This document shows positions 2,717 through 20,140 of a stretch of 25,845 bases of DNA, piece after piece (positions within the stretch are counted from its first letter, which is position 1; each line of letters begins with the position of its first letter). A program made the position numbers and the translations under genes. Under the pieces are notes generated by a model that saw nothing but the letters and a program-made list of their open reading frames with translations, searched no databases and was not told the origin of the DNA. The DNA lies in assembly GCA_016792845.1 (NCBI GenBank), contig JAEUKH010000043.1, forward strand, positions 1 through 25,845. Direction: 5' to 3'. This stretch comes from Myxococcales bacterium. Lineage in GTDB: Bacteria; Myxococcota_A; Polyangia; Polyangiales; Ga0077539.

Positions 2717-3559
2717 ATGGTCGCGACCGCAATGCTTGAACACCGCAAGATCGCCTTTGTGGGCGCGGGCAACATGGCCGAGGCGCTCATCCGTGGGATG
2801 CTCGCCGCAGGCGCCGTTCGCCCTGAAAACGTAGTGATTTCGGGTCGTCGCCGCGACAAGATCGAGCGCACCGCAGAGCGCCTCGGGGTGCGCGCCGCGG
2901 CCGACAACGCAGACTGCGTGCGCGACGCCGACGTGGTGATGCTGTGCGTGAAGCCGCAGGTGATGCGGGGCGTGGTCGAAGGCATCGCCCGCGAGCTCCG
3001 GGCCGACGCGCTGGTGGTGAGCGTCGCCGCGGGCATCGCGACCCGGGCCATCGAGGCGCCCTTCGCGGCCACCCAGCGGGTGGTGCGGGCCATGCCCAAC
3101 ACGGCGGCGGTGGTGCGCCAGAGCGCCACGGCCATCGCCGCGGGGGCCCACGCCAGCGACGACGACCTCGCCATCGCCAAGACCATCTTCGACGCGGTGG
3201 GGCGCACCGTGATCGTCGACGAGTACCACCTCGACGCGGTCACGGGGCTCTCGGGCAGCGGCCCTGCGTATGTGTTTTTGATCATCGACGCCCTCGCCGA
3301 CGCGGGGGTCAAGGTGGGGCTCTCGCGCGACGTCGCGCTCGAGCTCGCCGCCCAGACGGTGATGGGCTCGGCGCAGATGCTTCTGCACACCGGCGAGCAC
3401 CCGGGGCGGCTCAAAGACCAGGTCACGAGCCCCGGGGGCACGGCCATCGCGGGGCTTCACACCCTCGAAGCGGGGGGCCTGCGCACGACGCTCATCAACG
3501 CCGTCGAGACCGCCACCCGACGCGCGCGGGAGCTCGGCGATGCCCACGCCGCCAAGTGA
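2717..3559 (+). CDS. proC: pyrroline-5-carboxylate reductase
   Basis: KIAFVGAGNMAEAL (Rossmann fold), MPNTAAVV, VTGLSGSGPAYVF and VTSPGGTAIAG are classic ProC blocks. The alternative start ATG 2732 (MLEHRKIAFVG...) matches the usual ProC N-terminus better. Confidence 0.9.
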   Translation: MVATAMLEHRKIAFVGAGNMAEALIRGMLAAGAVRPENVVISGRRRDKIERTAERLGVRAAADNADCVRDADVVMLCVKPQVMRGVVEGIARELRADALVVSVAAGIATRAIEAPFAATQRVVRAMPNTAAVVRQSATAIAAGAHASDDDLAIAKTIFDAVGRTVIVDEYHLDAVTGLSGSGPAYVFLIIDALADAGVKVGLSRDVALELAAQTVMGSAQMLLHTGEHPGRLKDQVTSPGGTAIAGLHTLEAGGLRTTLINAVETATRRARELGDAHAAK

Positions 3560-4730
3560 GCCGCCCGGGGTGACGGCCGACCGAGAGGGCGCCCCGGAGG
3601 CCTCGCAGGGGTCTGGCCTGGGGTCTGGCCTGGGGTCTGGCCTGGGGTCTGGCCTGGGGTCTGGCCGAGGGCTGGTCACGGCGGCCGGGGTCGCGCTGGT
3701 GCTCGGCGCCGCGGCGGTGTTCGGCGCGCTGTGGGTGCCGATGGTGTTCGCCCTGTGGACGGCCGCTCTCCTCACCCCCCTGCACCGCTGGCTCGAAGCG
3801 CGCCTCGGCGGTCGCACCGCGGCGGCCACGGTGCTCGAGCTCGTGGCGGTGATGTCGCTGCTCGTGCCCTTGGTCTTCCTGGTGCTCTTGGTGGGCACCG
3901 AGGCTGCGGGCTTCGCGCGTCGCATCGTGGCCTCGCCCGCGGCGCAGGTCGCCCTCGAAGCGATGGTCTCGGCCGACCCGACGCAGAGCCCGCCGGGGCC
4001 CGTGTCGGGCGCCATCGCGATGCTCCCGGCCGCGCTTCAGCGCTTGGGCGCGCCGGTGATCGAGCGGGTCGCGGCGCTCCTCTCAGAGCACGGCGCGACG
4101 GCGTGGAGTTGGGCCGCGAGCGCAGCGGGGGCAGGGGCGAGCCTCACCCTCGATTTCGTGATCTTCGCGGTGACGCTCTTCGCGGTGCGCACCGAGGGCG
4201 ACGCGGCGTGGGCTTGGGCGCGCGCGCACGTGCCGCTCGGGCCCGAGACCCTCGACCGGCTGGCCCGAGCCTTCACCGAGACGGGCCGCGGGATCTTCAT
4301 CGGCGCGGGCCTCACGAGCCTCGCCCAGAGCCTCTTGTCGATGCTCTTTTACGCCGCCCTCGGCGTGCCGCGGGTGGTCGTCTTGGGGCTCCTCACCTTT
4401 GTCGCGGCCTTTGTGCCTGCGGTGGGCACCGCCGTCGTGTGGGGCCCCGTCGCCCTCGGCCTCGCCCTCACCGGACACCCCGGCAAGGCCCTCGCCCTCG
4501 CCCTCCTCGGCGCCTTCGGCGTAGGCTCCATCGACAACCTCACCCGCCCGCTCTTCCAGCGCTGGGGCGGAAACCTCAAGCTCCCCGCCTCGGTGCTCCT
4601 CTTCGCGGCCTTCGGCGGCCTGAGCCTCTTCGGCGCCAAAGGCCTCTTGCTCGGCCCACTTCTCGTGCGCATGGCCCGCGAGGTGATCGAAATCGCGCGC
4701 CCCGCGCCGCCCTCAACGCCGCCAGGTTGA
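3540..4730 (+). CDS. AI-2E family transporter (PerM/YdiK-like, UPF0118) with a low-complexity N-terminal extension
   Basis: Multi-TM protein. The C-terminal half (AFVPAVGTAVVWGPVALGLALTG...GVGSIDNLTRPLFQ) is typical of AI-2E/UPF0118 transporters. The ATG at 3540 overlaps the proC 3' end by 20 nt, so the true start may be further downstream (for example an in-frame GTG). The N-terminus contains a (GSGL)n repeat. Confidence 0.7.
   Translation: MPTPPSEPPGVTADREGAPEASQGSGLGSGLGSGLGSGLGSGRGLVTAAGVALVLGAAAVFGALWVPMVFALWTAALLTPLHRWLEARLGGRTAAATVLELVAVMSLLVPLVFLVLLVGTEAAGFARRIVASPAAQVALEAMVSADPTQSPPGPVSGAIAMLPAALQRLGAPVIERVAALLSEHGATAWSWAASAAGAGASLTLDFVIFAVTLFAVRTEGDAAWAWARAHVPLGPETLDRLARAFTETGRGIFIGAGLTSLAQSLLSMLFYAALGVPRVVVLGLLTFVAAFVPAVGTAVVWGPVALGLALTGHPGKALALALLGAFGVGSIDNLTRPLFQRWGGNLKLPASVLLFAAFGGLSLFGAKGLLLGPLLVRMAREVIEIARPAPPSTPPG
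3608..3667 (+). repeat. 12-bp perfect tandem repeat (GGGTCTGGCCTG) x5 inside the transporter N-terminus
   Basis: Read directly: four perfect units plus one degenerate unit. It is in frame (a multiple of 3) and encodes GSGLGSGLGSGLGSGLGSGRG. Confidence 0.9.
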
Positions 4731-4982
4731 ACACCGTTCAACTCCGCGCAAGCCCTCTCCTCTCGCCCCCGCTGCGCCTTTGTTGAACACCGTTCAACAC
4801 GCACCGTCTCGGCCCCCGGTGCGCCCTTGTTGAACACTGTTCAACACGCACCGTCTCGGCCCCGCTGCGCCCTTGTTGAACACCGTTCAACACTCCGTCT
4901 CCGTCACCGCTTCGTCGGCGCGCAGCCCCGCGGTGAGGCCCACTCGCTCCGCGCACCCCGCGCCTGTTGAACACTGTTCAAC
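4726..4982. repeat. array of five copies of the 17-bp perfect palindrome GTTGAAC-AC(C/T)-GTTCAAC embedded in ~45-56 bp tandem units
   Basis: Palindromes at 4726-4742, 4782-4798, 4829-4845, 4875-4891 and 4966-4982. Units 2-4 share the flank gcgcccttGTTGAACACCGTTCAACacgcaccgtctcggcccc. The palindrome is only about 41% GC in a window of 70% or more. The TGA stop of the upstream transporter (4728-4730) lies inside the first copy. Confidence 0.9.
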
Positions 4983-5136
4983 TTCGGCCTGAGCCTGCAT
5001 CGATCGGCTCTCTCGGGCATCCCCTCGCCCGAAACAGAGACACAACGCCCCGACCGTGGCACACGCGCCACCTTGTGGTTCGGGGCCCTGGCGACAACAC
5101 TACCGGCCTTCTGCACGGCCCGAAAGGACGCTACCC

Positions 5137-5625
5137 ATGCCACCACCGCACCACGAACGGCCTCCGCCACCGAGGCATCATGCCCCGGGTGACGCCCTCG
5201 CCGACGACCCCCGTCTTGACGACGCGCTTCGGAGCCTCGTCGACGACCCGGGCGCCCGTCGCTTCGTGCTTCGTTGCCTCGTGGGAGAGGGCCCGCAGCA
5301 TCACCGCGCGTCGAATCAGGTGTTGGTGCTCCTCTTGGCCGAGCTCGTGGCGCGTCTCGACGGGGCGCGGCCGCTCGACGCTTCGGGCCCTCAGCTCGCG
5401 GTGGCGATGCGCCTGCCGCCGCACCTTCGGGGCGACCGCGACGACCAGCGCTACCCGATCTCGGTGCCCCGCGCGGTGCTCGAACGCCTCTCAGATGACC
5501 CCGCCGCCGTCGACGCGATGGCCAGGGCGGTGGTCGACGGGCCGCCCCAGCACGCCGTCGCCAACGTGGTGATGTTGGGGCTCCTCGCGCAGTGCCTCGC
5601 GGCGCTTGAGGGCCGCCCCGCGTGA
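5137..5625 (+). CDS. hypothetical protein (Pro/His-rich N-terminus), first gene of a coupled three-gene operon
   Basis: ATG 5137 is preceded by AAAGGA 9 nt upstream. There is strong GC3 bias through the second half. Its stop TGA overlaps the GTG start of the next gene (GTGA). No family recognised. Confidence 0.5.
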   Translation: MPPPHHERPPPPRHHAPGDALADDPRLDDALRSLVDDPGARRFVLRCLVGEGPQHHRASNQVLVLLLAELVARLDGARPLDASGPQLAVAMRLPPHLRGDRDDQRYPISVPRAVLERLSDDPAAVDAMARAVVDGPPQHAVANVVMLGLLAQCLAALEGRPA

Positions 5626-6251
5626 GCGACCCGTCGCTGGCCATGGCCTTCTCGGCGGCGGCCGGAGAGCTCGGCATGAGCGCGGCGTCCTGGCTCTTTC
5701 TGCGCACCCTCGCGGCGGTCGAGGCGGGGGCCGAGGAGGCCGCGATCGAGAGCCTGGGGGCGCAGTTTCCGGTGATGGCGGCGGTGGGCGCGGCGTGGCG
5801 CGAGGGGCACCGCGGGCCGCGGTGTGACCTTGAGGGTGTGCGGGCGCGGCTCGACGGCGTCACCCGGGCCGTGGTGCTCGGGGTCGAGAGCGCACACCTC
5901 GACGCGCTCGTCGCGGCCTCGCCGGGGCTCGAACTCGGGCTCGTCACGGAGTCTCCGCTTGAGGCCGATTTCGAGCGCATCTTGGCCAACTTCGGGGGCC
6001 GCGTGGCCGCCGTCTCGCTCGCCGAATTGCAGCGCTGGAGCGGCGCGACGAGCGCCCTGGTCACCTTCCTCTACGGGGTCGACTCGCACGCCACGCAGGT
6101 CAGCCCCATCTGGCTCCGGGCCGTCGGCGACGACACCCGCACCCAGTTTCGCACCCTCCTCGGGTGGAACGTCTTGCCCGCCCCGATGCCCGTCTACCCC
6201 CGCTGGCTCGTCGAGGTCGCCCTCGACGCCTTCACCGACGTGGTGCCCTGA
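5622..6251 (+). CDS. hypothetical protein, second gene of the coupled operon
   Basis: GTG start at 5622 overlaps the preceding stop. Very strong third-position GC bias. Its stop TGA 6249-6251 overlaps the ATG of the permease (TGATG). No family recognised. Confidence 0.55.
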   Translation: MSDPSLAMAFSAAAGELGMSAASWLFLRTLAAVEAGAEEAAIESLGAQFPVMAAVGAAWREGHRGPRCDLEGVRARLDGVTRAVVLGVESAHLDALVAASPGLELGLVTESPLEADFERILANFGGRVAAVSLAELQRWSGATSALVTFLYGVDSHATQVSPIWLRAVGDDTRTQFRTLLGWNVLPAPMPVYPRWLVEVALDAFTDVVP

Positions 6252-7576
6252 TGAGCCTCGCCTTCGCGGGCATCCTCCTCGCGGCGCTGATCGCCCAGGC
6301 CCTCTGGCCCGGCGCCCGCCTCAGGGTGGTCGTCTCGGGCGCGGCGCTGAGCTGCCTTCTGGCCTCGCTTCGCGGCGTGAGCACCACGGCCCGGCTCTTC
6401 GCGGCGGTCCCGTGGGACGTCTTGACGATCCTCGTGGGCCTCGGGGTGGTCACCGAGGTGCTCGTCGCCTCGCGGCTCTTCTCGCTCATGGCCGTTCGGG
6501 TGACCCGGGCCACCGGGGCCCGACCGTGGCGCTTCGCGCTCACCTTCGCGTTGGTGATGTACGTCGTGAGCGGCCTGGTCAACAACCTCACGGCGCTCCT
6601 CCTGGTCTTGCCCGTGATGCTGGTGGTGTTTCGCGTCCTCGGGGTCACGCAGCGCTTCTTGTCGCTCACATTGGGGCTCTTGCTGGTGGCTTGTAACCTC
6701 GGCGGCGCCGCCACGCCCATCGGAGACTTCCCCGCGATTTTGCTCCTCGGTCGTGGCGCGATGCGCTTCGGGGTCTACCTCACCGCGGCGGCCCCTCGCA
6801 CCGCGCTGGCCCTCGCCCTCGTGGTGGTCGCCCTCTCGTGGCGCCGTCAAGCGAGCCCCCGCGACGGCACCGAGGCGCTCAGGGCCGCGCTCACGGTGAA
6901 CACCCTCGAAGCCCTCCACCGCGGCATCCGCATCGACCGCAGGTACCTCTTGCCGGGCGCGGCGGCCCTCGCGGCGATGCTCCTCGGGTGGGTCTTGATC
7001 CCCGCCTCGACGGGCATCGGCCCCGAGCTCATCTGCTGGCTCGGCGCCGCCCTGAGCCTCCTCGGCGCCGGAAAGGTCGGCGAGACCATCGCCCGCCGCC
7101 GCGTCGACGTCGAGGCCGTGCTCTTCCTCCTCTCGCTCTTCGTGATGGTGGGCGCGGCCCGCGAGAGCCACCTCTTCACCGACATCGCCCGCTGGCTCAC
7201 GGCGCTGCCCCTCTCGCCCGCCGCGCAGGTGGTGGTCTTCCTCGTCGCCGCGGCGCTGCTCACGGGCGTCTTCAGCGCGGGGCCGAGCATGGCGGCGCTC
7301 CTCGACGTCGCCGACGCCCTCGCCCGGCAGCACCCCCGCGAGGCCCGCGACGCCCTCTACGTGGGCCTCGCGATGAGCGTCTGCGCGGGCAGCTCGCTCT
7401 TCCTCACCGCCGCCACCGCAGGGCCCCTCACCCAGAGCCTCATCGAACGCGCGGGCCTCCGTGGCCCCGACGGAGAGCCCCTCCGCTTCGGCTTCCGAGA
7501 GTACCTCCCGGTCGGCCTCGTGGCCTTCGCGCTCATCCTCTCGGTGGGCATCGCGAGCACCCTCGCCGCCCTCTGA
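6251..7576 (+). CDS. ArsB/NhaD-superfamily permease (anion/arsenite-type ion transporter family)
   Basis: Multi-TM protein. The blocks GLVNNLTALLLVLPVMLVVF and VDVEAVLFLLSLFVMVGAARESHLFTDIARWL align by eye with E. coli ArsB (FANDGAALILTPIVIAML and [32 protein letters not shown]). The ATG at 6251 is chosen over the upstream TTG at 6164 because of the start/stop coupling. Confidence 0.7.
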   Translation: MSLAFAGILLAALIAQALWPGARLRVVVSGAALSCLLASLRGVSTTARLFAAVPWDVLTILVGLGVVTEVLVASRLFSLMAVRVTRATGARPWRFALTFALVMYVVSGLVNNLTALLLVLPVMLVVFRVLGVTQRFLSLTLGLLLVACNLGGAATPIGDFPAILLLGRGAMRFGVYLTAAAPRTALALALVVVALSWRRQASPRDGTEALRAALTVNTLEALHRGIRIDRRYLLPGAAALAAMLLGWVLIPASTGIGPELICWLGAALSLLGAGKVGETIARRRVDVEAVLFLLSLFVMVGAARESHLFTDIARWLTALPLSPAAQVVVFLVAAALLTGVFSAGPSMAALLDVADALARQHPREARDALYVGLAMSVCAGSSLFLTAATAGPLTQSLIERAGLRGPDGEPLRFGFREYLPVGLVAFALILSVGIASTLAAL

Positions 7577-7597
7577 CGGCCCCTCGCCGACACCGCC

Positions 7598-7712
7598 CAC
7601 GCGCGGCGTGTTGAACACCGTTCAACTTCAGCGACCCGCCCACGCGCGGCGTGTTGAACACCGTTCAACTTCAGCGACCCACCCAGGCGCGGCGTGTTGA
7701 ACACCGTTCAAC
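7598..7712. repeat. three tandem 43-bp units, each containing the same 17-bp palindrome GTTGAACACCGTTCAAC
   Basis: Palindromes at 7610-7626, 7653-7669 and 7696-7712, with a period of exactly 43 bp. The unit is cacgcgcggcgtGTTGAACACCGTTCAACttcagcgacccgcc. The array begins 22 bp after the permease stop. The stop (TGA on the minus strand, 7708-7710) of the convergent gene lies inside the last copy. Confidence 0.9.
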
Positions 7713-8433
7713 TTGCGACGCCGAGGTCGATGACCCAGGCCTCGGGAGCCCACCGGCGCCAGGTCTCGGCCGGGAGGTTCACCCACGACGACGCGCGGTC
7801 GATCACCAGGCCGTCGGCGCTGGCCACGCAGCCGGCTCCGACGAGCGCCGTGTCGGCGTCGCGCACCATCTCGACCCGGGCCGCACACCCCTGCGCGCGG
7901 GCCCCCTCGCAGGCCGCCTCGCAGAGCGCCCGCACGCGGCCCGAGTTGCTCACCGGCGCGTCGATCCACAGGGTGATCGCGGCCGCCCGGGCTTCGAGCA
8001 GGCAGCGCACCAGCCAGTCGATCGCCGCGGCCGAGTCGTCGACGGTGCGGTAGCTCCCGCGGAGCCCGCAAAGGTCGCGGAGCGCGCCGTCGCGGCCCAC
8101 AAAGCTCGGAGCCCCGCCGCGCAACACCTCAAGGCTCACGAGCGTGTTGAAGAGGTCGACGTCGACCCGCTCACCGCCGAGCGACGCGAGCCCGCGACGG
8201 GTCTTCGCCCGCGAGACGCAGCCCGCGTCGTCGACGCTCATGCGCGACACCGCGAGGCGGGCCCGGGCGTGGAGCTGGTGATGGTCGCCCGCCGCCCGCA
8301 CCGCCGCCTCGCGGGGGTACCCCCGTGACAAGAGCCACGACACCTCTTCGACCGCCGCGCGCAACGCGGGCCGCGAGGCGGTCGAGAAGTGCGAGGCGTC
8401 GTCGGCGTCGGCGCCGCGTCGTCGGTCAGACAT
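7708..8433 (-). CDS. hypothetical protein (weak resemblance to DUF434/DUF5616-type proteins, not verified)
   Basis: Start ATG 8433 (MSDRRRGADADD...). The longer ORF back to 8532 adds an unlikely Arg/Pro-rich leader. Good GC3 bias. Contains SWLLSRGYPREAAV and ITLWIDAPVSNSGRVRAL blocks. Confidence 0.5.
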   Translation of the reverse strand: MSDRRRGADADDASHFSTASRPALRAAVEEVSWLLSRGYPREAAVRAAGDHHQLHARARLAVSRMSVDDAGCVSRAKTRRGLASLGGERVDVDLFNTLVSLEVLRGGAPSFVGRDGALRDLCGLRGSYRTVDDSAAAIDWLVRCLLEARAAAITLWIDAPVSNSGRVRALCEAACEGARAQGCAARVEMVRDADTALVGAGCVASADGLVIDRASSWVNLPAETWRRWAPEAWVIDLGVAS

Positions 8434-8543
8434 GGGGCTCGGAGGGTGGCAGAGGTGACCGGGCCGCGCACCCTGCAAAGCGGGCTCGAATTGTCGCGCG
8501 GCGCGCTTGCATGAGGGCCCGACGGCACGCACGCTCTCGGGCC

Positions 8544-9539
8544 ATGCGGCACGCAGACTTCATTCGCGCGGGGCACCTCGACGAGGCGATGCGGCAGGGT
8601 GTGTTGACCGCGGCGCAGCGCGAGGCCCTCGAAGCCATCGCCCGCTCAGCGCCCGATGCGTCGGCGCGGGGGGCCGACCTCGGGTGGGCCCGGTACGGCT
8701 TCGGGGCCCTCACCGCGGCGGGTCTCGGCGGCCTCGCGGTGGTGTTGCTCTCGCAGCTTCACAGCACGCCCGTGGGTGAGTTCGCGCTCACCGCAGGGCT
8801 CGCCATGGCGGCGCTCGTGGGCCTCGGGGCGCGGCTCCGCAGGCGGGCGCTCTTCGAACCGACCGCGGCGATCGCCTTCGCGGCCGCGGTGGGCCTGAGT
8901 TGGGCCGTCGCCGCGGCGCTCTTTCGGCTCCCCCTCGCCGACGACCCGGTGGGCCTCACCTCACCGCGCGGCTTCCTTCGATGGACGCTCCCGGCTGACG
9001 GCATCATGCTCATGACGGCCTTCGTTCTCGGGCGTCGCTTCGGCGCTCCGACGGTGGCGGTGCCCGCGGGCCTGGCGCTCGGGCACGGGCTCTACCGCGT
9101 CTTCGCCGTGACCGCCGCAGGCGTCTCGCCCCACACCCTGGGCACCACCGCGGTGGCCCTGGCCGGGGTCCTCTCGCTCGCCCTCGGGCTCGCCTTCGAC
9201 CGCGTGCCGGGGCGACGCGATTGGGGCCACTGGTGGCACGCCATGGCGGCGTTCTACCTCACGCTCTTGCCGACCCTGCCCGCGTCCTGGTCGACACCCT
9301 TGGGGCTCGGCGCGGCGCTCGGGCTCGGCGCGCTGACCTTCGGCACCCGGCGATTGAGCTACCTCGTAGGCCTCGCGGGGCTCGCCGCGTTGGTGAGCGT
9401 GCGGGCCCTCGACGGCGCGCCCTTGCTGCTCTCGGCGGCGGCCTGTCTGGGCGTGCTCTGCGGGCTCGGGGCGCTCACCTGGCGTTGGCTGCGGCGCGCG
9501 GCCCTTGCGACCGAAGCCGAGCGCAACCCGTGGTGCTGA
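8544..9539 (+). CDS. hypothetical integral membrane protein
   Basis: ATG 8544 (MRHADFIRAGHLDEAMRQGVLTAAQREALEAIARS...) is followed by 7-8 predicted hydrophobic helices. It is divergent from the 7708..8433 gene. The ORF-track start at 8325 adds an Arg-rich, non-protein-like leader. Confidence 0.55.
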   Translation: MRHADFIRAGHLDEAMRQGVLTAAQREALEAIARSAPDASARGADLGWARYGFGALTAAGLGGLAVVLLSQLHSTPVGEFALTAGLAMAALVGLGARLRRRALFEPTAAIAFAAAVGLSWAVAAALFRLPLADDPVGLTSPRGFLRWTLPADGIMLMTAFVLGRRFGAPTVAVPAGLALGHGLYRVFAVTAAGVSPHTLGTTAVALAGVLSLALGLAFDRVPGRRDWGHWWHAMAAFYLTLLPTLPASWSTPLGLGAALGLGALTFGTRRLSYLVGLAGLAALVSVRALDGAPLLLSAAACLGVLCGLGALTWRWLRRAALATEAERNPWC

Positions 9540-9547
9540 GGCGCTCA

Positions 9548-9563
9548 CCTACCGATCGGTAGG
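9548..9563. repeat. 16-bp perfect palindrome CCTACCGATCGGTAGG at a convergent gene junction
   Basis: Read directly. It sits 9 bp after the stop of the 8544..9539 gene. It contains the TAG stop and the last four codons (PTDR) of the minus-strand gene 9549..10256. Confidence 0.85.
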
Positions 9564-10256
9564 CGGCCTGAGGCGCCACACGCCCGGCACCTCCGCGCGA
9601 GCCTCGACGACCTCGCTGCCGTACCGCGGGTGGTAGAAGCGCAGCTGCGGGCGCTGCGCGTCGACGAGCTCGCCGAGCGCGACCCCCGAGAGCACGAATT
9701 GCCCCTCGCTGTCGGTCACCGCGAAGACCGATGGGCGCTGCCACCCCCAACGGCCGTACTGCCTCCGCTCGGCCTCGACCCGCACGCCCGCGACGGCCGC
9801 GCCGGTGACCGCGTCGCGCACCTGCCCTCGAAACGAGGCCCCCTCAGCGACATCGAGGCGGACCCCCGAGGCCCGCTCGCCCGGCCCGAGGCTGAGCGCG
9901 TCGTAGTTGCCCCCGAGGGTCGAGTGCTGAAACAGGCCCGCGGCGCCCGCGCGACCCGCGAGGCTGTAGTGCCGACGCGCGTCGAGGCGGAGCCCCGCGA
10001 TGCGAAAGCGCCCCCCCGCGAGGGTCACCCGCACCGGCATCGCGCCCTCGTCGGGCTGATCGAGGCGGCGCCAGCTGAGCGCGAAGGTGGCCGCCTCGCC
10101 GGGCCCCGTGCGCCCCGAGACCCAGCCCTCGATCGCGCAAGTGCCCGCGGGCTCGGCACCCGCCGCGATCTGAAACGGCGCCTCGCGGCGACACCCCAGA
10201 ATCGCCACGAGGCTCAGCCCGAGGCTCAGCCCGCCCGTCGTTCGCCCCCGATGCAT
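9549..10256 (-). CDS. lipoprotein with carboxypeptidase-regulatory-like (CarbopepD_reg-type) beta-sandwich domain
   Basis: Start ATG 10256 (MHRGRTTGGLSLGLSLVAILGCRREAPF..., lipobox LGC). The segment VTDSEGQFVLSGVALGE is typical of carboxypeptidase regulatory-like domains. C-terminus is ...RPPTDR-stop. Confidence 0.55.
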   Translation of the reverse strand: MHRGRTTGGLSLGLSLVAILGCRREAPFQIAAGAEPAGTCAIEGWVSGRTGPGEAATFALSWRRLDQPDEGAMPVRVTLAGGRFRIAGLRLDARRHYSLAGRAGAAGLFQHSTLGGNYDALSLGPGERASGVRLDVAEGASFRGQVRDAVTGAAVAGVRVEAERRQYGRWGWQRPSVFAVTDSEGQFVLSGVALGELVDAQRPQLRFYHPRYGSEVVEARAEVPGVWRLRPPTDR

Positions 10257-10320
10257 CACCGCAGACGGTACACCCTTCTCGCCGGGCGAACAGCACGGCA
10301 CACTCTCAAGTCAACGCACC

Positions 10321-11319
10321 ATGAGCGACTTTTACCGCGCGTCGTACCTCACCCCCAATCACGACGGCTGGGAGCTCATGCTGCGCCGGACCCGCCGCGC
10401 CGACCTGCCCGAGGGCCCCGCGTCGCCGGTCTTGATCGTGCCCGGATACGGCATGAACGCGTTCATCTTCGGCTTCCACCCGAGCGGTCGGAGCCTCAGC
10501 GAGCACCTCGCGTGGCGCGGCCTCGATGTGTTCACGGTCGACCTCCGGGCCCAGGGCGACAGCGTGGCGGTCTCGCGCGAGGCCAGGCGACACCCGACCC
10601 GCGGGTTCGGCCTCGCGGCGCTCTCGGGCGTCGACCTCACGGCGGCGCTCGACCAGATCCGCGATCTTACGGGGCGCCCGCGGGTGAGCGTGATCGGCGC
10701 CTCGCTCGGCGCGACCTTGGTCTTCGCGCACCTCGCCCTGGTCGGTCCGAGCCTCGTCGACCGGGTGGTCAGCCTCGGGGGCCCGCTGCGGTGGGAGTCG
10801 GTTCACCCCATGGTGGCCCTCGCGTTCTCGTCTCCGCGGCTCGCCGGGGCCCTTCATTTTCGCGGCACCCGTCGGCTCGCGGCGGCGGCCTTGCCCTTGC
10901 TCACCCGCGCGCCCTCGCTCCTGCGGCTCTACGTCAACGCCGAGGTGAGCGACCTCTCGCGGGCCCAGGAGATGGTCGCCACGGTGGCCGACCCCATCGC
11001 GCAGGTGAACCGCGAGATCGCCGAATGGATCGCAGCCCGCGACCTCGTCCTCGACGGGCGCAACGTCACCGAGGGCGTGCGCGCGAGCGAGCACCCTTTG
11101 CTGTGCGTGCTCGCCAACGCCGACGGCGTGGTGCCCCAGGCCACCGCACGGAGCCCCTTCGACCAGAGCGGCAGCCGCGACAAATCGCTGCTCGTGGTCG
11201 GCGACCCGGCGCACCCTTACGCCCACGCCGACCTCTTCATCGCCCGCGAGGCCGAGGCCAGGGTCTTCGAACCCATCGCGCGCTTCCTCGCGACGCCGAC
11301 GCGCCCTACCGATCGGTAG
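10321..11319 (+). CDS. alpha/beta-fold hydrolase
   Basis: Nucleophile elbow G-x-S-x-G (VIGASLGAT) in the expected context, with an upstream LIVPGYGMN oxyanion-region block. Strong GC3 bias. C-terminus is ...TRPTDR-stop, with the TAG inside the second palindrome copy. Confidence 0.7.
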   Translation: MSDFYRASYLTPNHDGWELMLRRTRRADLPEGPASPVLIVPGYGMNAFIFGFHPSGRSLSEHLAWRGLDVFTVDLRAQGDSVAVSREARRHPTRGFGLAALSGVDLTAALDQIRDLTGRPRVSVIGASLGATLVFAHLALVGPSLVDRVVSLGGPLRWESVHPMVALAFSSPRLAGALHFRGTRRLAAAALPLLTRAPSLLRLYVNAEVSDLSRAQEMVATVADPIAQVNREIAEWIAARDLVLDGRNVTEGVRASEHPLLCVLANADGVVPQATARSPFDQSGSRDKSLLVVGDPAHPYAHADLFIAREAEARVFEPIARFLATPTRPTDR

Positions 11320-11321
11320 GG
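11304..11321. repeat. 18-bp perfect palindrome CCCTACCGATCGGTAGGG (second copy of the CCTACCGATCGGTAGG element)
   Basis: Read directly. It contains the stop codon of 10321..11319 and lies 14 bp before the stop of the convergent gene 11335..11655. Confidence 0.85.
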
Positions 11322-11334
11322 CGACACCCGCGGT

Positions 11335-11655
11335 TCAGTGCCAGGCGCCGCGGATTCGGTCGTACACCGAGTGGGCCACCGCCTCGCTCGGCCCCGACAC
11401 GCTCAGGGTCGAGACCTGATCGACGCAGATGCTCACCACCACATACTCGCCCGCGTGCCCGGTGACGATGTGCGAGCCCTGGTTGATGCTCACCTGCGTG
11501 AGGTGCGACACCGCGTAGGCCGCGGCCGCGCCGCTCATGCACGCCTCGGCGTTGGCCTCGTGGCGCCACCACCCCGTCCACGTATTGGTCGCGTGTGCAA
11601 GAACCGGAACCGCCACCAGCGCACACAGCAACGAACCCAGCACAATCTTCTTCAT
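11335..11655 (-). CDS. small secreted hypothetical protein
   Basis: Clear Sec signal peptide: MKKIVLGSLLCALVAVPVLAHA. 106 aa. The codon third positions in the 5' part are noticeably less GC-rich than neighbouring genes. Confidence 0.5.
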   Translation of the reverse strand: MKKIVLGSLLCALVAVPVLAHATNTWTGWWRHEANAEACMSGAAAAYAVSHLTQVSINQGSHIVTGHAGEYVVVSICVDQVSTLSVSGPSEAVAHSVYDRIRGAWH

Positions 11656-11776
11656 ATCGCGGGCTCTACACCGCAGCCCTCCCCATCACAAGACCGCGCG
11701 CTTGATTTGCAGCCCCCGCCTTCGGTGCGGCGCGCCTTGCGTGAGGGCCCGCGGCGGGTCAGCGTTGGCCCCGACG

Positions 11777-12142
11777 ATGAAGATTCTGTTCGTGTGCAGC
11801 CGCAACCGACGGCGCAGCCTCACCGCCGAGCATCACTTCCGCGCGACCCCGGGGCTCGACGTGCGCTCGGCCGGCACCTCTGACGCGGCGCGGGTTCGGG
11901 TCACCGCCCCGATGCTCGCCTGGGCCGACCTCATCGCCGTGATGGAGAAGCGCCACCGCGCTCAACTCGACGCGCGCTTCGGCGACCTCGTCGACCCCTC
12001 GCGGGTGGCGGTGCTCTACATCACCGACGACTACGAGTACGGCGACCCGGCCCTCATCGCGCGGCTCGAAGCGACCCTCGCCCCGATCCTCGCCCGGGGC
12101 GAGCCCGAGGCGCCTCCTCTCGACCCGTCGGAGGGTGTATAG
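11777..12142 (+). CDS. low-molecular-weight protein-tyrosine-phosphatase-fold protein (COG4551-like predicted phosphatase)
   Basis: Start ATG 11777 (MKILFVCSRNRRRSLTAEHHF...) carries the C-x5-R P-loop (CSRNRRR) of the LMW-PTP/ArsC fold. It ends 11 bp before the CDF transporter gene. Confidence 0.55.
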   Translation: MKILFVCSRNRRRSLTAEHHFRATPGLDVRSAGTSDAARVRVTAPMLAWADLIAVMEKRHRAQLDARFGDLVDPSRVAVLYITDDYEYGDPALIARLEATLAPILARGEPEAPPLDPSEGV

Positions 12143-12153
12143 CGTCGCCCGCG

Positions 12154-13056
12154 ATGGCGCTCACCCCCGCAGAGAAGATGGCCCGGTACAGCCTCGCGAC
12201 GGGCGTGGCGGTGCTGGGGCTCAAGACCCTCGCCTGGCGGCTCACGGGCTCGGTGGCCCTGCTCTCAGACGCCCTCGAATCGATCGTCAACGTGGTGGCC
12301 TCGCTCGCGATGGCCGTGGCGGTCTCGATCTCGCAGGCGCCGCCCGACGACGACCACCCCTTCGGGCACGGCAAGGCCGAGTACCTCTCGGCGGTGCTCG
12401 AGGGCGTGCTCATCGTGGTGGCGGCGGGCATGAGCGTGTTCGCCGCGGCGGGGCGAATTCTGCACCCGCGGCCCCTTGAGGCGGTCACCGTCGGCGCGCT
12501 CGTCTCGGCGGCGGCGACGGGGCTCAACGGGCTCCTCGCGTGGCGGCTGATGGCAGTCGGGCGCCGCGTTCAGTCGCCCGCGTTGATGGCCGACGGCAAG
12601 CACATCGTGAGCGACGTGATCACCACCGCGGGCGTGCTCTTGGGCGTGCTGGTCGCGCGCTTGACCGGGCGCTGGGTGCTCGACCCGCTCCTCGCCATCG
12701 CAGTCGCGCTGAACATCGTCTCGATGGGCTGGCACCTCATCCGCGAATCGATCGGCGGCCTGATGGACGAGGTGCTCGACCCCGCCGTGGTCACCGCCCT
12801 CCGCGCCAAGGCCGAGGCGAGCGCGCGGGCCGCGGGCGCCACGGGCATCGAGGCCCTGCGCTGGCGACGCGCGGGGCCCTACACCTGGCTCGCCGCGGTG
12901 GTGCGGGTGCCGGGCGCGATGCGCGTCGACGCGGCCCACGCCATCTGCGACCAGATCGAAGCCGCCCTCGCGGCCGATGAGCCGAAGTTGCAGGTGATGC
13001 TCCACGTCGAGCCCGACCCCGTAGCGCCCCCTCAGGGCGGCGCAGGCGCGGCGTAG
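12154..13056 (+). CDS. cation diffusion facilitator (CDF) family divalent-metal efflux transporter
   Basis: ALLSDALESIVNVV (TM2 signature), HPFGHGKAEY and the C-terminal cytoplasmic domain are typical of CzcD/FieF-type CDF proteins. Confidence 0.85.
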   Translation: MALTPAEKMARYSLATGVAVLGLKTLAWRLTGSVALLSDALESIVNVVASLAMAVAVSISQAPPDDDHPFGHGKAEYLSAVLEGVLIVVAAGMSVFAAAGRILHPRPLEAVTVGALVSAAATGLNGLLAWRLMAVGRRVQSPALMADGKHIVSDVITTAGVLLGVLVARLTGRWVLDPLLAIAVALNIVSMGWHLIRESIGGLMDEVLDPAVVTALRAKAEASARAAGATGIEALRWRRAGPYTWLAAVVRVPGAMRVDAAHAICDQIEAALAADEPKLQVMLHVEPDPVAPPQGGAGAA

Positions 13057-16793: not shown

Positions 16794-19238
16794 GTGGTAG
16801 CGTCGCGGCCTTTCGCGATGTCGGAGCTTTCTAGACGGACGACGCTGGTGTTGCTGGCCCTTGTGGCGGGCTCGATCGTGACCATCGAGGTCTTGCTCAC
16901 GCGGGTCTTGTCGGTCTCGACCTGGTACGGCCTGGCCTTCGTGGTGTTGAGCGTGGCGATGCTGGGGCTGTCGTCGGGCGCGCTTTGGGCGGCCCGGGCG
17001 GCCGAAGCGGGCGAGGCCCTCGCGCCGTGGGTGGCCAGGCGGCTCGTGACCATGGCGGTGAGCCTCGGCGGCGCGACGGTGCTCTTGTGCGCGATGCCCG
17101 TCGCGTTTGCGCCCAACCTGACGTCGTTCTTGTCGCTGTTGGGGGTGGTGGGGGCGGTGGCCCTTCCGTTGGTGTGCGGCAGCGCGGTGGTGGCGCGGCT
17201 CATGGCCGAGGGTGACGTGCCCTTGCCCACGCTCTATGCGGTCGATCTTGGGAGCGCCGCGGCGGGGGCGCTCTTGCCGTTGGTGCTCCTCGGCCCGCTC
17301 TCGGGGCCTGGGGCGCTCCTGGCCATCGCGGGGCTCATGGCCGCGGCGGCCGCGGTGGTGGCCCCGGAGGCAGAGCGGAGCCTCGCGCGGGTGCTCGTGG
17401 CCACGGCGGCGACCCTGGTGTTTGTCACCGAGGCGATGCCCCGGGCGGGGCTCCATGTGCGCTACCCGAAGGGCATCTTGAGGCCCGACGACGAGGTGCC
17501 CCGCTTCGAAGCGTGGAACCCCCTCTCGCACGTCTACGTCACGGATTTTCGAGAGCTCCCGGCCCCGCCGCTCTGGAGCGCCTCGCCCCGCACCCCCGCG
17601 GTGCGCACCACGGCCGCGAACGCGCGCATCGACGGCGAGGCGGCAACGCCCATCTACCGCTTTCACCGCACGCAAGAGCTGAACGTCCTTCGCTTCGACG
17701 CCACCACCTCGGCCCACGCGCTGCGGCCCGAGGGCACCGCTTGCGTGATCGGCGTCGGCGGCGGCCGCGACCTCTTGACGGCGCTCAACTACGGCCACGA
17801 CCGTGTGTACGGCGCCGAGATCAACCCCGCGATGGTGGCGATGCTCGGGGCCGTTCAGAGCGAATCGCCGGTGCTGAGCGACCCGCGGGTCACCGTTCGG
17901 GTGGGCGACGGGCGGGCGCTCTATGCCGCCACGAACGTGCACTGCGAGGTACTGCAAGCCTCGCTGGTCGACACCTGGGCGGCCACCACGGCGGGGGCCT
18001 TCGCGCACACCGAGTCGACGCTCTACACCCGCGAGGCGTGGGCGGTGTTCTTGCGCCGCACGGCCCCGCGCGGTGTGGTGACCTTCTCGCGCTGGTACGA
18101 CCCGCGGCGCGCGAGCGAGACCTCGCGGCTCGTGTCGCTGGCGGTGGCCTCGCTTCTCGACCGCGGCGTGACCGCGCCCGAGGGGCACATCGCGCTCTTG
18201 GGCGCGGGGGTGGTGGCGACCATCCTGGTGAGCCCGGCGCCCTTCTCAGAGGCCGACCTCGCGGCCCTCGCCGAGCTCGAGACGCGCTTTCAGTTCAGGG
18301 TGCTTTTGGCCCCGGGGCGAGCGCCGGCTGACCCGCTCCTCGGGCGGTTGTGGCGCGCCCGGAGCCTCGGCGCCTTGGCCGACATCGGGCGCCCCGAGGG
18401 CCTCGACACGAGCGCTCCCACCGACGACCGGCCCTTCTTCTTTCAGCTCCTCGCGCCGTCTCAGTGGCTTCACCCGATGGCGGCGCTCGAGCGGGCGCGC
18501 AACAGCTCGGGCGTGCTCGCGGGCAATGCGACGGCCATGTTCGAGCTGCTGGTGACCTTCTCGGCCACGCTGCTCCTCGGCCTGGCGCTCTTGGGCCCGA
18601 CCCTGGCGGCGGCCTTTCGCGCGCGGCGTCCGGCGCTGCCAGGGCCTCGCGCGGCGGTGTATTTTGGCGCGCTCGGGGCGGGCTTCATGTTGGCCGAGAT
18701 CGCCCTCGTTCAGCGCATGCATGTGGTGCTCGGGCACCCGACCTATGCGCTCGTGGTGGTGCTCGCGGGGCTCCTCATCGCGACCGGGCTCGGGAGCTAT
18801 CTCTCGTCGCGCTGGGTGCGCTCGCGGGGGGCCGTGTCGCGGCTCGGCGCGCTCGTGGGGGTGGGCCTTGTGGCCTTGCCGCACCTCGTGATCGGGCCCC
18901 TCGCCCGCGCCACCCTCGACGGCAGCTTCGCCCTCCGCGCCCTCTGGACGGGCGGCGTCGCGGGCCTGGTCGGCCTCGGCCTGGGGATGTTCTTCCCCTC
19001 GGGGGTGCGCTTCACCGACCGCGCCCGGGGCGCCTCGGTGGCCCTCGCCGTCAACGGCGCGACGAGCGTGCTCGGCAGCGTGCTCGCCATCGTGCTGTCG
19101 GTCTGGTTCGGCATCGCGGCGAGCTTCGCCGCGGCGGGGCTCTTCTACCTCGTCGCCGCCTGGGCGGGCCCCTCGGGTTGGAGCCCGCTCGACGCGGAGC
19201 CCCCTGCCGAGGGTGAGGCCCCCGAGACGGCGCCCTGA
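16794..19238 (+). CDS. fused MFS-like membrane domain / spermidine synthase-like protein
   Basis: N-terminal and C-terminal multi-TM regions flank a spermidine/spermine synthase-type methyltransferase-fold core (ACVIGVGGGRDLLTALNYGHDRVYGAEINPAMV). This architecture is commonly annotated as fused MFS/spermidine synthase. An alternative start is ATG 16818 (MSELS...). Confidence 0.75.
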   Translation: MVASRPFAMSELSRRTTLVLLALVAGSIVTIEVLLTRVLSVSTWYGLAFVVLSVAMLGLSSGALWAARAAEAGEALAPWVARRLVTMAVSLGGATVLLCAMPVAFAPNLTSFLSLLGVVGAVALPLVCGSAVVARLMAEGDVPLPTLYAVDLGSAAAGALLPLVLLGPLSGPGALLAIAGLMAAAAAVVAPEAERSLARVLVATAATLVFVTEAMPRAGLHVRYPKGILRPDDEVPRFEAWNPLSHVYVTDFRELPAPPLWSASPRTPAVRTTAANARIDGEAATPIYRFHRTQELNVLRFDATTSAHALRPEGTACVIGVGGGRDLLTALNYGHDRVYGAEINPAMVAMLGAVQSESPVLSDPRVTVRVGDGRALYAATNVHCEVLQASLVDTWAATTAGAFAHTESTLYTREAWAVFLRRTAPRGVVTFSRWYDPRRASETSRLVSLAVASLLDRGVTAPEGHIALLGAGVVATILVSPAPFSEADLAALAELETRFQFRVLLAPGRAPADPLLGRLWRARSLGALADIGRPEGLDTSAPTDDRPFFFQLLAPSQWLHPMAALERARNSSGVLAGNATAMFELLVTFSATLLLGLALLGPTLAAAFRARRPALPGPRAAVYFGALGAGFMLAEIALVQRMHVVLGHPTYALVVVLAGLLIATGLGSYLSSRWVRSRGAVSRLGALVGVGLVALPHLVIGPLARATLDGSFALRALWTGGVAGLVGLGLGMFFPSGVRFTDRARGASVALAVNGATSVLGSVLAIVLSVWFGIAASFAAAGLFYLVAAWAGPSGWSPLDAEPPAEGEAPETAP

Positions 19239-20116
19239 GGGCCCGCCAGGGGCGTCTCGGGGCTCGCCTGGGGGGTCGGGGCGTGGGCGTGCCGTCGACG
19301 CCTTGAGAGGGGCATTCCGCGCGGCGCCTCGTGACCGAGGGGGCGGTAGAAGGCCCCGAGCCCGACCATGCGGTAGGGCGCCTCGCCGCGGGCGATGAGG
19401 GCGGCGTTGCGACGGTCGAGCTCGTTCAAGATCAGCGGCACGGCCGAGACGCTCCACGGGCGGGTGTCGTGTTGCAAGACCACGCCGCCGCGGGGGTGAC
19501 CGTCGAGGGCGGCGCGAAAGTTTCGCAGCACCGCGCGGGGGTCTCGCACCTCCCAGTCGTGGGTGTCGAGCATCCAGTAGGCGGGGGTGTAACCCCTTGA
19601 AAAGACAGCATCAATGGCGCGACGCGAGCCGAGGAGGCCGAAGGGCGCGCGGAAGAGCGCCGGGCGCCGCCCTAGGGTGGCGGTGATGAGCTGGTCGGTG
19701 CGGTCGAGCTCGAACGCGAGGCGCTCGGGCCTCAGGCCGTCGAGCACGATGTGCCGGTACCCGTGGGCGGCGATGGTGTGCCCTTGGCGCGACGCTTCGA
19801 CGAGGGTCTCGCGGTTGCGTCGGTGAAAGAGGTCGTCGCCGTCGAGGCGGTGGCCGACCGCGAAGAAGGTCACCCGGAGCCTGCGCTCGGCCAGGAGGCG
19901 CAGGAGCCGCGGAGTGGTGCGGTAGTCAGGGCCGTCGTCGAAGGTGAGGGCGATGCAGCGGGGGTACCGCGGGGGGCACTCGCCGTCGATGAGCTGCCCC
20001 CCGCCGAGGGGGCCGCGCGGGTGGCGCGAGACGGGGCCTCGGAGCGCGAGGGCGCTCGTGAGCGGTAGCGCCAAGAGCGCGGCGGCGAGGAGGATCGGGC
20101 GGGCTCCCAAAGACAT
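19145..20116 (-). CDS. polysaccharide deacetylase (NodB homology domain), secreted
   Basis: Signal peptide MSLGARPILLAAALLALPLTSALA. NodB motifs LTFDDGP, HGYRH and VVLQHD. The last ~31 codons overlap the convergent 16794..19238 gene. The low-complexity tail may not be real. Confidence 0.75.
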   Translation of the reverse strand: MSLGARPILLAAALLALPLTSALALRGPVSRHPRGPLGGGQLIDGECPPRYPRCIALTFDDGPDYRTTPRLLRLLAERRLRVTFFAVGHRLDGDDLFHRRNRETLVEASRQGHTIAAHGYRHIVLDGLRPERLAFELDRTDQLITATLGRRPALFRAPFGLLGSRRAIDAVFSRGYTPAYWMLDTHDWEVRDPRAVLRNFRAALDGHPRGGVVLQHDTRPWSVSAVPLILNELDRRNAALIARGEAPYRMVGLGAFYRPLGHEAPRGMPLSRRRRHAHAPTPQASPETPLAGPQGAVSGASPSAGGSASSGLQPEGPAQAATR

Positions 20117-20117
20117 C

Positions 20118-20140
20118 GGGCCTACCGATACGGCAGGCCC
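20118..20140. repeat. degenerate third copy of the CCTACCGAT...GGTAGG palindrome (GGGCCTACCGATACGGCAGGCCC)
   Basis: Near-palindrome sharing the CCTACCGAT core. It lies 2 nt upstream of the deacetylase start codon and 57 bp downstream of the stop of 20197..22038. Confidence 0.6.

Follow-up and report, generated by a model that had tools for sequence, protein, structure and literature searches.

Introduction

AibR is a TetR-family regulator of the alternative isovaleryl-CoA biosynthesis (AIB) operon of Myxococcus xanthus (Bock et al., Nucleic Acids Res 2017, PMC5389471), and a family of its structures is available (PDB 5K7F/5K7H/5K7Z; PMC5389471). It recognizes an 18-nt inverted repeat, ACCTACCG-2N-CGGTAGGT, and binds it only with isovaleryl-CoA (IV-CoA) in place; the AibR/IV-CoA/DNA complex was crystallized with a duplex of the self-complementary primer 5'-CCTACCGATCGGTAGG (PMC5389471). 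Single-base mutagenesis of the operator identified A5, G8, T10 and G12 as critical, and T14 contacts Tyr51 (18-mer numbering; PMC5389471). A second regulator, TTHB023 of Thermus thermophilus, has the REPSA-derived consensus (a/c)Y(g/t)A(A/C)YGryCR(g/t)T(c/a)R(g/t) with the optimum CTGACCGATCGGTCAG; it targets fatty-acid genes, at sites that often overlap core promoter elements or position +1 (PMC7022988). Here we analyze a 25,845-nt stretch from the metagenome-assembled genome of a Myxococcales bacterium (GenBank assembly GCA_016792845.1, contig JAEUKH010000043.1, positions 1 to 25,845; hereafter the window), in which a perfect 16-bp palindrome, CCTACCGATCGGTAGG, occurs twice at the ends of genes and is identical, letter for letter, to the AibR co-crystal duplex.

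Short palindromes near genes belong to several other described systems. Repetitive extragenic palindromes and the mosaic elements built from them (REP/BIME) are imperfect palindromes, about 20-40 nt long, that have a loop and carry a conserved GTAG-type head on the 5' side of the stem. They are particular to a species or genus, number tens to hundreds per genome and are associated with an IS200/IS605-like Y1 transposase (RAYT). An intrinsic (Rho-independent) terminator consists of a GC-rich stem-loop followed by a U tract. Termination by protein roadblock is known for CodY, CcpA, LacI and PurR when they sit within a gene or downstream of it, and TetR-family proteins have non-promoter sites of their own, such as the SBS of SlmA and the RBM of RefZ.

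Two gene ends carry the sequence of a crystallized TetR operator

The two exact copies of the 16-mer lie at 9548-9563 (copy 1) and 11305-11320 (copy 2), 1757 bp apart from start to start. The palindromes described at these two gene ends in the initial annotation are therefore real, although the second had been placed at 11304-11321; it occupies 11305-11320 within a perfect 22-bp palindrome (11302-11323), in which complementarity extends 3 bp beyond the 16-mer at either end. A chance origin of the two exact copies was ruled out, as none of 100 dinucleotide-preserving shuffles of the window contained two matches, even when 3 mismatches were allowed. Outside the palindrome there is no similarity between the flanks of the two copies. 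Agreement over the operator and nothing more points to selection for a particular binding sequence, as opposed to the copying of an element.

In both copies the half-sites CCTACCG and CGGTAGG stand exactly 2 bp apart, and all the operator bases singled out in AibR (A5, G8, T10, G12 and T14) are present. With its flanks, copy 1 reads ACCTACCG-AT-CGGTAGGC and agrees with the AibR operator at 17/18 positions. Half-sites and spacing are the same in the two systems, and both hosts are myxobacteria. The natural M. xanthus site, however, is near-perfect with a GT spacer, whereas the window copies have an AT spacer and no imperfection, and the M. xanthus operator is found in the promoters of aibR and mxan_3791, in contrast to the window copies, which sit at convergent 3' ends over stop codons. 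The 16-mer also satisfies the TTHB023 consensus at 16/16 positions. The operator of this regulator (PfmR) in T. thermophilus HB8 is likewise a 16-bp palindrome, built around ACCGATCGGT, but its optimum differs from the window 16-mer at the outer triplets and its known sites overlap promoters.

We consider it probable, with considerable room for doubt, that copies 1 and 2 are operator-grade sites for an acyl-CoA-responsive TetR dimer of the AibR/TTHB023 class. This reading supposes that the organism encodes a cognate TetR protein, that the protein would bind at these positions and that binding would have an effect. What looked like a REP family is most likely a known operator motif, new only in its position, and an apparently new repeat family can be reclassified as instances of a structurally characterized operator.

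A degenerate third copy (20121-20137) precedes the polysaccharide deacetylase gene, as previously noted, and lies 4 nt from the ATG. It differs from the 16-mer by 1 inserted base and 1 T>C change, can be extended to an imperfect palindrome at 20118-20140 and sits in the 80 nt that separate two minus-strand genes. Only 0.035 matches within 2 edits are expected per shuffled window, so copy 3 is probably, but not certainly, related to copies 1 and 2. Within the deacetylase gene itself, a further site at 19362-19377 (CCGACCATGCGGTAGG) retains 12/14 half-site bases (2 mismatches), including an intact CGGTAGG half-site, and is without the critical G8 and T10; by a rough estimate, about 0.1 such matches would arise by chance.

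Shared stop codons and PTDR tails

Convergent genes meet at both junctions, their stop codons 9 nt (9540-9548) and 15 nt (11320-11334) apart, which bears out the earlier placement of the two copies. The first lies between a membrane-protein gene and an orphan lipoprotein-like gene, and the second between an alpha/beta hydrolase gene and a small secreted-protein gene (Table 1). GC1/GC2/GC3 profiles are coding-like in 4/4 of these flanking genes. The lipoprotein open reading frame (ORF) spans 9549-10301 on the minus strand, and an independent assembly calls a 235-aa product starting at 10256; the hydrolase has 332 aa. The initial annotation was also correct that the two genes share a stop string on opposite strands: both ORFs end in CCT ACC GAT CGG TAG and both proteins in PTDR.

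Table 1. Palindromes and flanking genes, in window coordinates
Feature	Position	Strand	Description
Copy 1	9548..9563	no strand	perfect 16-bp palindrome, CCTACCGATCGGTAGG
Copy 1 outer stem	9540..9577		imperfect, GGCGCTCA ... TGAGGCGCC, with a 5-nt bulge; from RNA folding
Copy 2	11302..11323	no strand	perfect 22-bp palindrome, CGCCCTACCGATCGGTAGGGCG; 16-mer inside at 11305-11320
Degenerate copy 3	20121..20137		CCTACCGATACGGCAGG = CCTACCG-ATA-CGGCAGG, 3-bp spacer
Membrane-protein gene	8544..9539	+	converges on copy 1; stop ends 8 nt ahead of the palindrome
Orphan lipoprotein-like gene	9549..10256	-	weak CarboxypepD_reg match; stop and last four codons (PTDR) within copy 1
Alpha/beta hydrolase gene	10321..11319	+	Hydrolase_4 / Abhydrolase_1; stop and last four codons (PTDR) within copy 2
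Small secreted-protein gene	11335..11655	-	converges on copy 2; stop 15 nt past the hydrolase stop

Unrelated C-termini in orthologues had been named in advance as an outcome that would refute the initial proposal, and this outcome was observed. Among the 120 hydrolase homologues listed, PTDR ends the query only (0/119 of the others) and the C-termini are otherwise unrelated: beyond ...VFEPIARWL, where the conserved domain closes, lies a tail of 3-15 residues that varies. The closest syntenic relatives (L122/L123 and L124) encode hydrolases 59-61% identical to that of the window, none with a PTDR tail. No homologues of the lipoprotein were detectable. Genes of other genomes likewise end in PTDR on the 16-mer, among them that of a SpoU methylase in two Phenylobacterium species (L036/L086), where some 40-60 nt separate the site from the gene that follows.

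The 16-mer makes TAG available in one frame on each strand, and the GC content of the window is 72%. Because the junctions are 9 and 15 nt wide and stop codons are scarce at such a composition, the TAG of the operator would have become the stop codon of one gene per junction. The PTDR tails look like by-products of a TAG-containing operator lying over gene ends, without a function at the protein level. We read them so because in a high-GC genome the first in-frame stop often comes from an AT-containing regulatory site, because none of the other hydrolase homologues listed shares the tail and because the syntenic relatives lack the palindrome. In a high-GC genome, a TAG-containing operator can thus give unrelated genes a shared stop and identical tails, which calls for caution when conserved C-terminal motifs are annotated.

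The 16-mer in other genomes

We scanned one genome per species for the exact 16-mer and considered blocks of about 8 kb around each match; all counts that follow are among the loci listed. At least 118 loci were found in many phyla, with at most 2 per genome. In 35/118 loci a TetR-family ORF starts within 150 bp of the 16-mer and points away from it, and in 10 a TetR gene is present elsewhere in the block. The TetR profile was built from the dominant cluster of flanking ORFs (all-against-all BLASTP), and 8/8 cluster representatives tested matched TetR-family NCBIfam models. Acyl-CoA dehydrogenase genes and one subunit of an electron-transfer flavoprotein (ETF) were found beside the TetR-linked sites, with acyl-CoA dehydrogenases often following the TetR gene. 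At Myxococcota loci without an adjacent TetR gene, the 16-mer lies upstream of CoA-transferase, MaoC-dehydratase, FadL-like/WS-DGAT and acyl-CoA dehydrogenase genes. The theme of the TTHB023 regulon, fatty acid and acyl-CoA metabolism, matches the genes beside the 16-mer in other phyla.

With respect to neighboring genes, the sites were divergent (n = 30), tandem (n = 37), "inside" (n = 31), at block edges (n = 16) or convergent (n = 4), as assigned by a crude gene tiling in which the "inside" class is often due to over-called starts. The enrichment at gene ends previously proposed for the element thus failed across other genomes, with only 4 of 118 loci convergent. Judging from the arrangement of neighboring genes, the 16-mer elsewhere appears overwhelmingly to be a 5'-region operator, especially for TetR regulators of acyl-CoA metabolism. 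When nine window proteins encoded around the three copies were compared by BLASTP with the ORFs of the 118 loci listed, no match was obtained.

A further 11 loci, all from actinobacteria (L003, L007, L011, L016, L027, L030, L033, L061, L072, L105 and L111), carry the 16-mer between divergent genes for an HxlR regulator and an F420/NADP oxidoreductase. A second regulator family, HxlR, therefore appears to use the same core. At these loci extra GGTAGG / CTACCG half-sites flank the 16-mer, and the palindrome is often longer. Two other loci, from a Bdellovibrionales metagenome-assembled genome (MAG; L098) and a Myxococcota MAG (L106), share a promoter segment (...CCATTGCGCA..GCG.CGAAT) directly downstream of the 16-mer; in L106 the next gene encodes a CoA-transferase, reminiscent of aibA/aibB of the AIB operon.

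Alternatively, copies 1 and 2 could be genuine TetR operators of unannotated promoters within the junctions, driving antisense transcripts or small RNAs derived from 3' ends, so that their location at gene ends is misleading. Both the identity to the AibR operator and the promoter association of the 16-mer across genomes would agree with this, as would the frequent location of TTHB023-type sites over core promoter elements or +1 (PMC7022988). Sigma-70-like promoters, however, were absent from positions 9000-12000 in a scan that covers myxobacterial promoters poorly, the surrounding DNA is clearly coding on the annotated strands, and Rfam and tRNA scans of the window returned nothing. We regard hidden promoters as an improbable explanation.

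Hairpins, terminators and REP elements

The main rival to the operator reading is a protein-independent role. The 16-mer could form a hairpin, either REP-like or acting as an I-shaped bidirectional terminator or RNA-stabilizing stem-loop, that has spread in the genome, in which case its match to a TetR operator would be incidental. The perfect copies are the sole sequence available for termination in the 9- and 15-nt junctions. By RNA folding, copies 1 and 2 are modestly more stable than shuffled sequences (z -1.4 to -2.5), and the extended hairpin of copy 1 reaches a minimum free energy of -31.6 and -31.4 kcal/mol on the two strands (z -2.2 and -1.4). Convergent cases in other genomes are long-stemmed, three of them with A/T runs as in terminators: 3/4 have 4-9 extra stem pairs flanked by such runs and resemble terminator hairpins. 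The window also contains a second palindrome family arranged in tandem arrays, of which one occupies a convergent junction.

Several observations speak against such a hairpin. The terminator scan found nothing at either palindrome, and no T run follows either of them on either strand; lacking a U tract, they are not canonical intrinsic terminators, a candidate that we ruled out. That they can fold as RNA hairpins, one element of the role first proposed for them, is supported by the folding scores above. The stem common to copies 1 and 2 amounts to 6 bp only, around a GAUC loop. The copies are dissimilar outside the palindrome, and it is very unlikely that all 14 specified bases and the spacer T10 would match a myxobacterial operator by accident.

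The likeness to REP/BIME elements is also partial. The window element is short, hairpin-capable, placed in convergent intergenic space and contains GTAG. Unlike REP/BIME, its core is perfect, loop-less and 16 bp long, GTAG lies inside the 3' arm, and the element overlaps coding sequence. There are 2 exact and 1 degenerate copies in the 25.8-kb window, the 16-mer is not lineage-specific, and a Pfam scan found no transposase or RAYT domain among 20 window ORFs. The proposal of a REP-like repeat family is therefore not supported: the element lacks REP architecture and equals the AibR operator duplex. All considered, we hold a protein-independent hairpin to be rather unlikely, if clearly a more serious contender than hidden promoters.

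The operator reading nevertheless has to accommodate a number of observations that weigh against it. The position is odd: two perfect operators lie in convergent junctions with no obvious promoter near and no TetR gene among the window ORFs scanned (no TetR_N match among the 20 ORFs, Pfam). The promoter or 5' location typical of AibR/TTHB023-class operators, often ahead of the gene for the regulator itself, is not that of copies 1 and 2, and none of the 13 Myxococcota loci listed has a convergent 16-mer site (0/13). In other Myxococcota, the TetR proteins whose genes adjoin the 16-mer resemble AibR only distantly (5k7f, E = 7e-7, over the helix-turn-helix region only). Stem extensions of at least 3 bp are found at 2/35 TetR-adjacent sites versus 30/83 other sites, and copy 2 is extended to 22 bp; together with the outer stem of copy 1 and folding better than that of shuffles, this favors a hairpin. 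Finally, copy 3 has a T>C change at T14, the thymine contacted by AibR Tyr51, and has lost the register of G12. With its 3-bp spacer in addition, copy 3 should not bind an AibR-like dimer, as far as its sequence allows a prediction. Its transcribed (minus) strand, however, folds into a strong hairpin (-32.8 kcal/mol, z -3.4) in which a G-U pair replaces the mismatch, so that pairing is kept where operator geometry is lost. No aibR or AIB genes were found in the window.

Syntenic relatives and the history of the locus

In the closest syntenic relatives the gene order is proB, proC-hydrolase-small gene-S1. Neither where the hydrolase gene ends nor ahead of the deacetylase gene do L122/L123 or L124 have a palindrome copy within 3 edits, and the 16-mer is absent from 42 kb of the syntenic relatives. 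In a stop-anchored alignment with L124, CCGACGCG...CGGTAG is common around the site; MAFFT favors another alignment with an indel. The shared letters may point to an origin of the site in situ and are suggestive only.

Compared with L122/L124, the stretch of the window from proC to the hydrolase gene (3540-10320) is longer by about 6.7 kb of genes, comprising an AI-2E transporter, two small ORFs, CitMHS, DUF434/DUF5616, the membrane protein and the orphan lipoprotein. A low-molecular-weight (LMW) phosphatase-like gene and a CDF transporter gene precede S1 at 11777-13056 and are absent from that place in the relatives. Both segments are lineage-specific gene gain.

Such gain brings recombination into consideration, with the palindromes marking either the footprint of a mobile element or the ends of a two-gene cassette that was inserted or can invert. 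They bracket the 1.76-kb two-gene unit exactly, a palindrome is both a direct and an inverted repeat, so that inversion would keep both reading frames, and the region is about 6.7 kb larger than in the syntenic relatives. Against this, the hydrolase gene is ancestral at this place (proC-hydrolase-S1 synteny in L122/L124), the boundaries of the insertion do not coincide with the palindromes, and there is no recombinase or transposase among the 20 window ORFs scanned. Both palindromes are crossed collinearly, at 100% identity and never in inverted form, by three independent assemblies that derive from different sequencing runs; this rules out an invertible cassette. Recombination sites of any kind are, in our judgment, highly improbable here. 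Short Logan contigs match the window without a difference, end at the arrays of the second palindrome family and add only about 440 bp past the right end of the window.

A possible role for operators at convergent 3' ends

If copies 1 and 2 are indeed operators, each would be bound by a TetR homodimer with one recognition helix in the half-site CCTACCG and the other in CGGTAGG, and if the cognate protein resembles M. xanthus AibR, whose binding to its operator requires isovaleryl-CoA (PMC5389471), occupancy would depend on a ligand. Since the sites lie at convergent 3' ends, the bound protein would be unable to control initiation of the flanking genes. Three outcomes of binding may be considered. 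The bound dimer might act as a ligand-dependent roadblock or insulator against read-through into the antisense of the convergent gene, perhaps helped by the RNA hairpin; this outcome, though short of an even chance, is the one we would put first. Somewhat less probable is that the dimer controls an antisense or internal promoter missing from the annotation, and an absence of any regulatory effect at these positions deserves the same modest weight.

Our best guess is the metabolite-dependent roadblock or insulator, which is the effect most compatible with the anatomy of the junctions, as these have no room for anything else. By analogy with roadblock systems, a regulator acting away from promoters would explain the presence of operator-grade sites at gene ends. 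We know of no TetR-family roadblock described at convergent 3' ends. A stronger version, in which an acyl-CoA-gated TetR roadblock and the hairpin together form a ligand-switchable bidirectional terminator around the lipoprotein/hydrolase unit, derived from a repressor operator, is unlikely on present grounds. If true, regulator-dependent roadblock or insulation would be a new use for TetR-family repressors.

Other features of the window

The second palindrome family, family 1 (GTTGAACAC[C/T]GTTCAAC), forms two tandem arrays. Five copies at 4726-4982, most of them about 46-55 nt apart and the last 92 nt further on, follow the AI-2E transporter gene and lie upstream of a plus-strand gene called at ~5101. 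Three copies at 7610-7712, with a 43-nt unit, occupy the convergent CitMHS/DUF434 junction, and independent assemblies of the strain break exactly within this array. The metagenome contigs found through the family-1 repeat come from unrelated organisms; none is window-like and none contains the 16-mer. In two of these high-GC contigs (L202 and L246), the family-1 17-mer and a near-identical partial copy are found just upstream of a start codon, an operator-like arrangement.

An ORF at 154-1173 on the minus strand matched nothing in Pfam, and the assembly index contains no exact record of it. Positions 1-1000 have a GC content of 0.61, against 0.69-0.75 elsewhere in the window. Lastly, an ORF of about 810 aa (16794-19238, plus strand) and the polysaccharide deacetylase gene (19145-20116, minus strand) overlap convergently by 94 nt (19145-19238), compared with 14 nt in L122.

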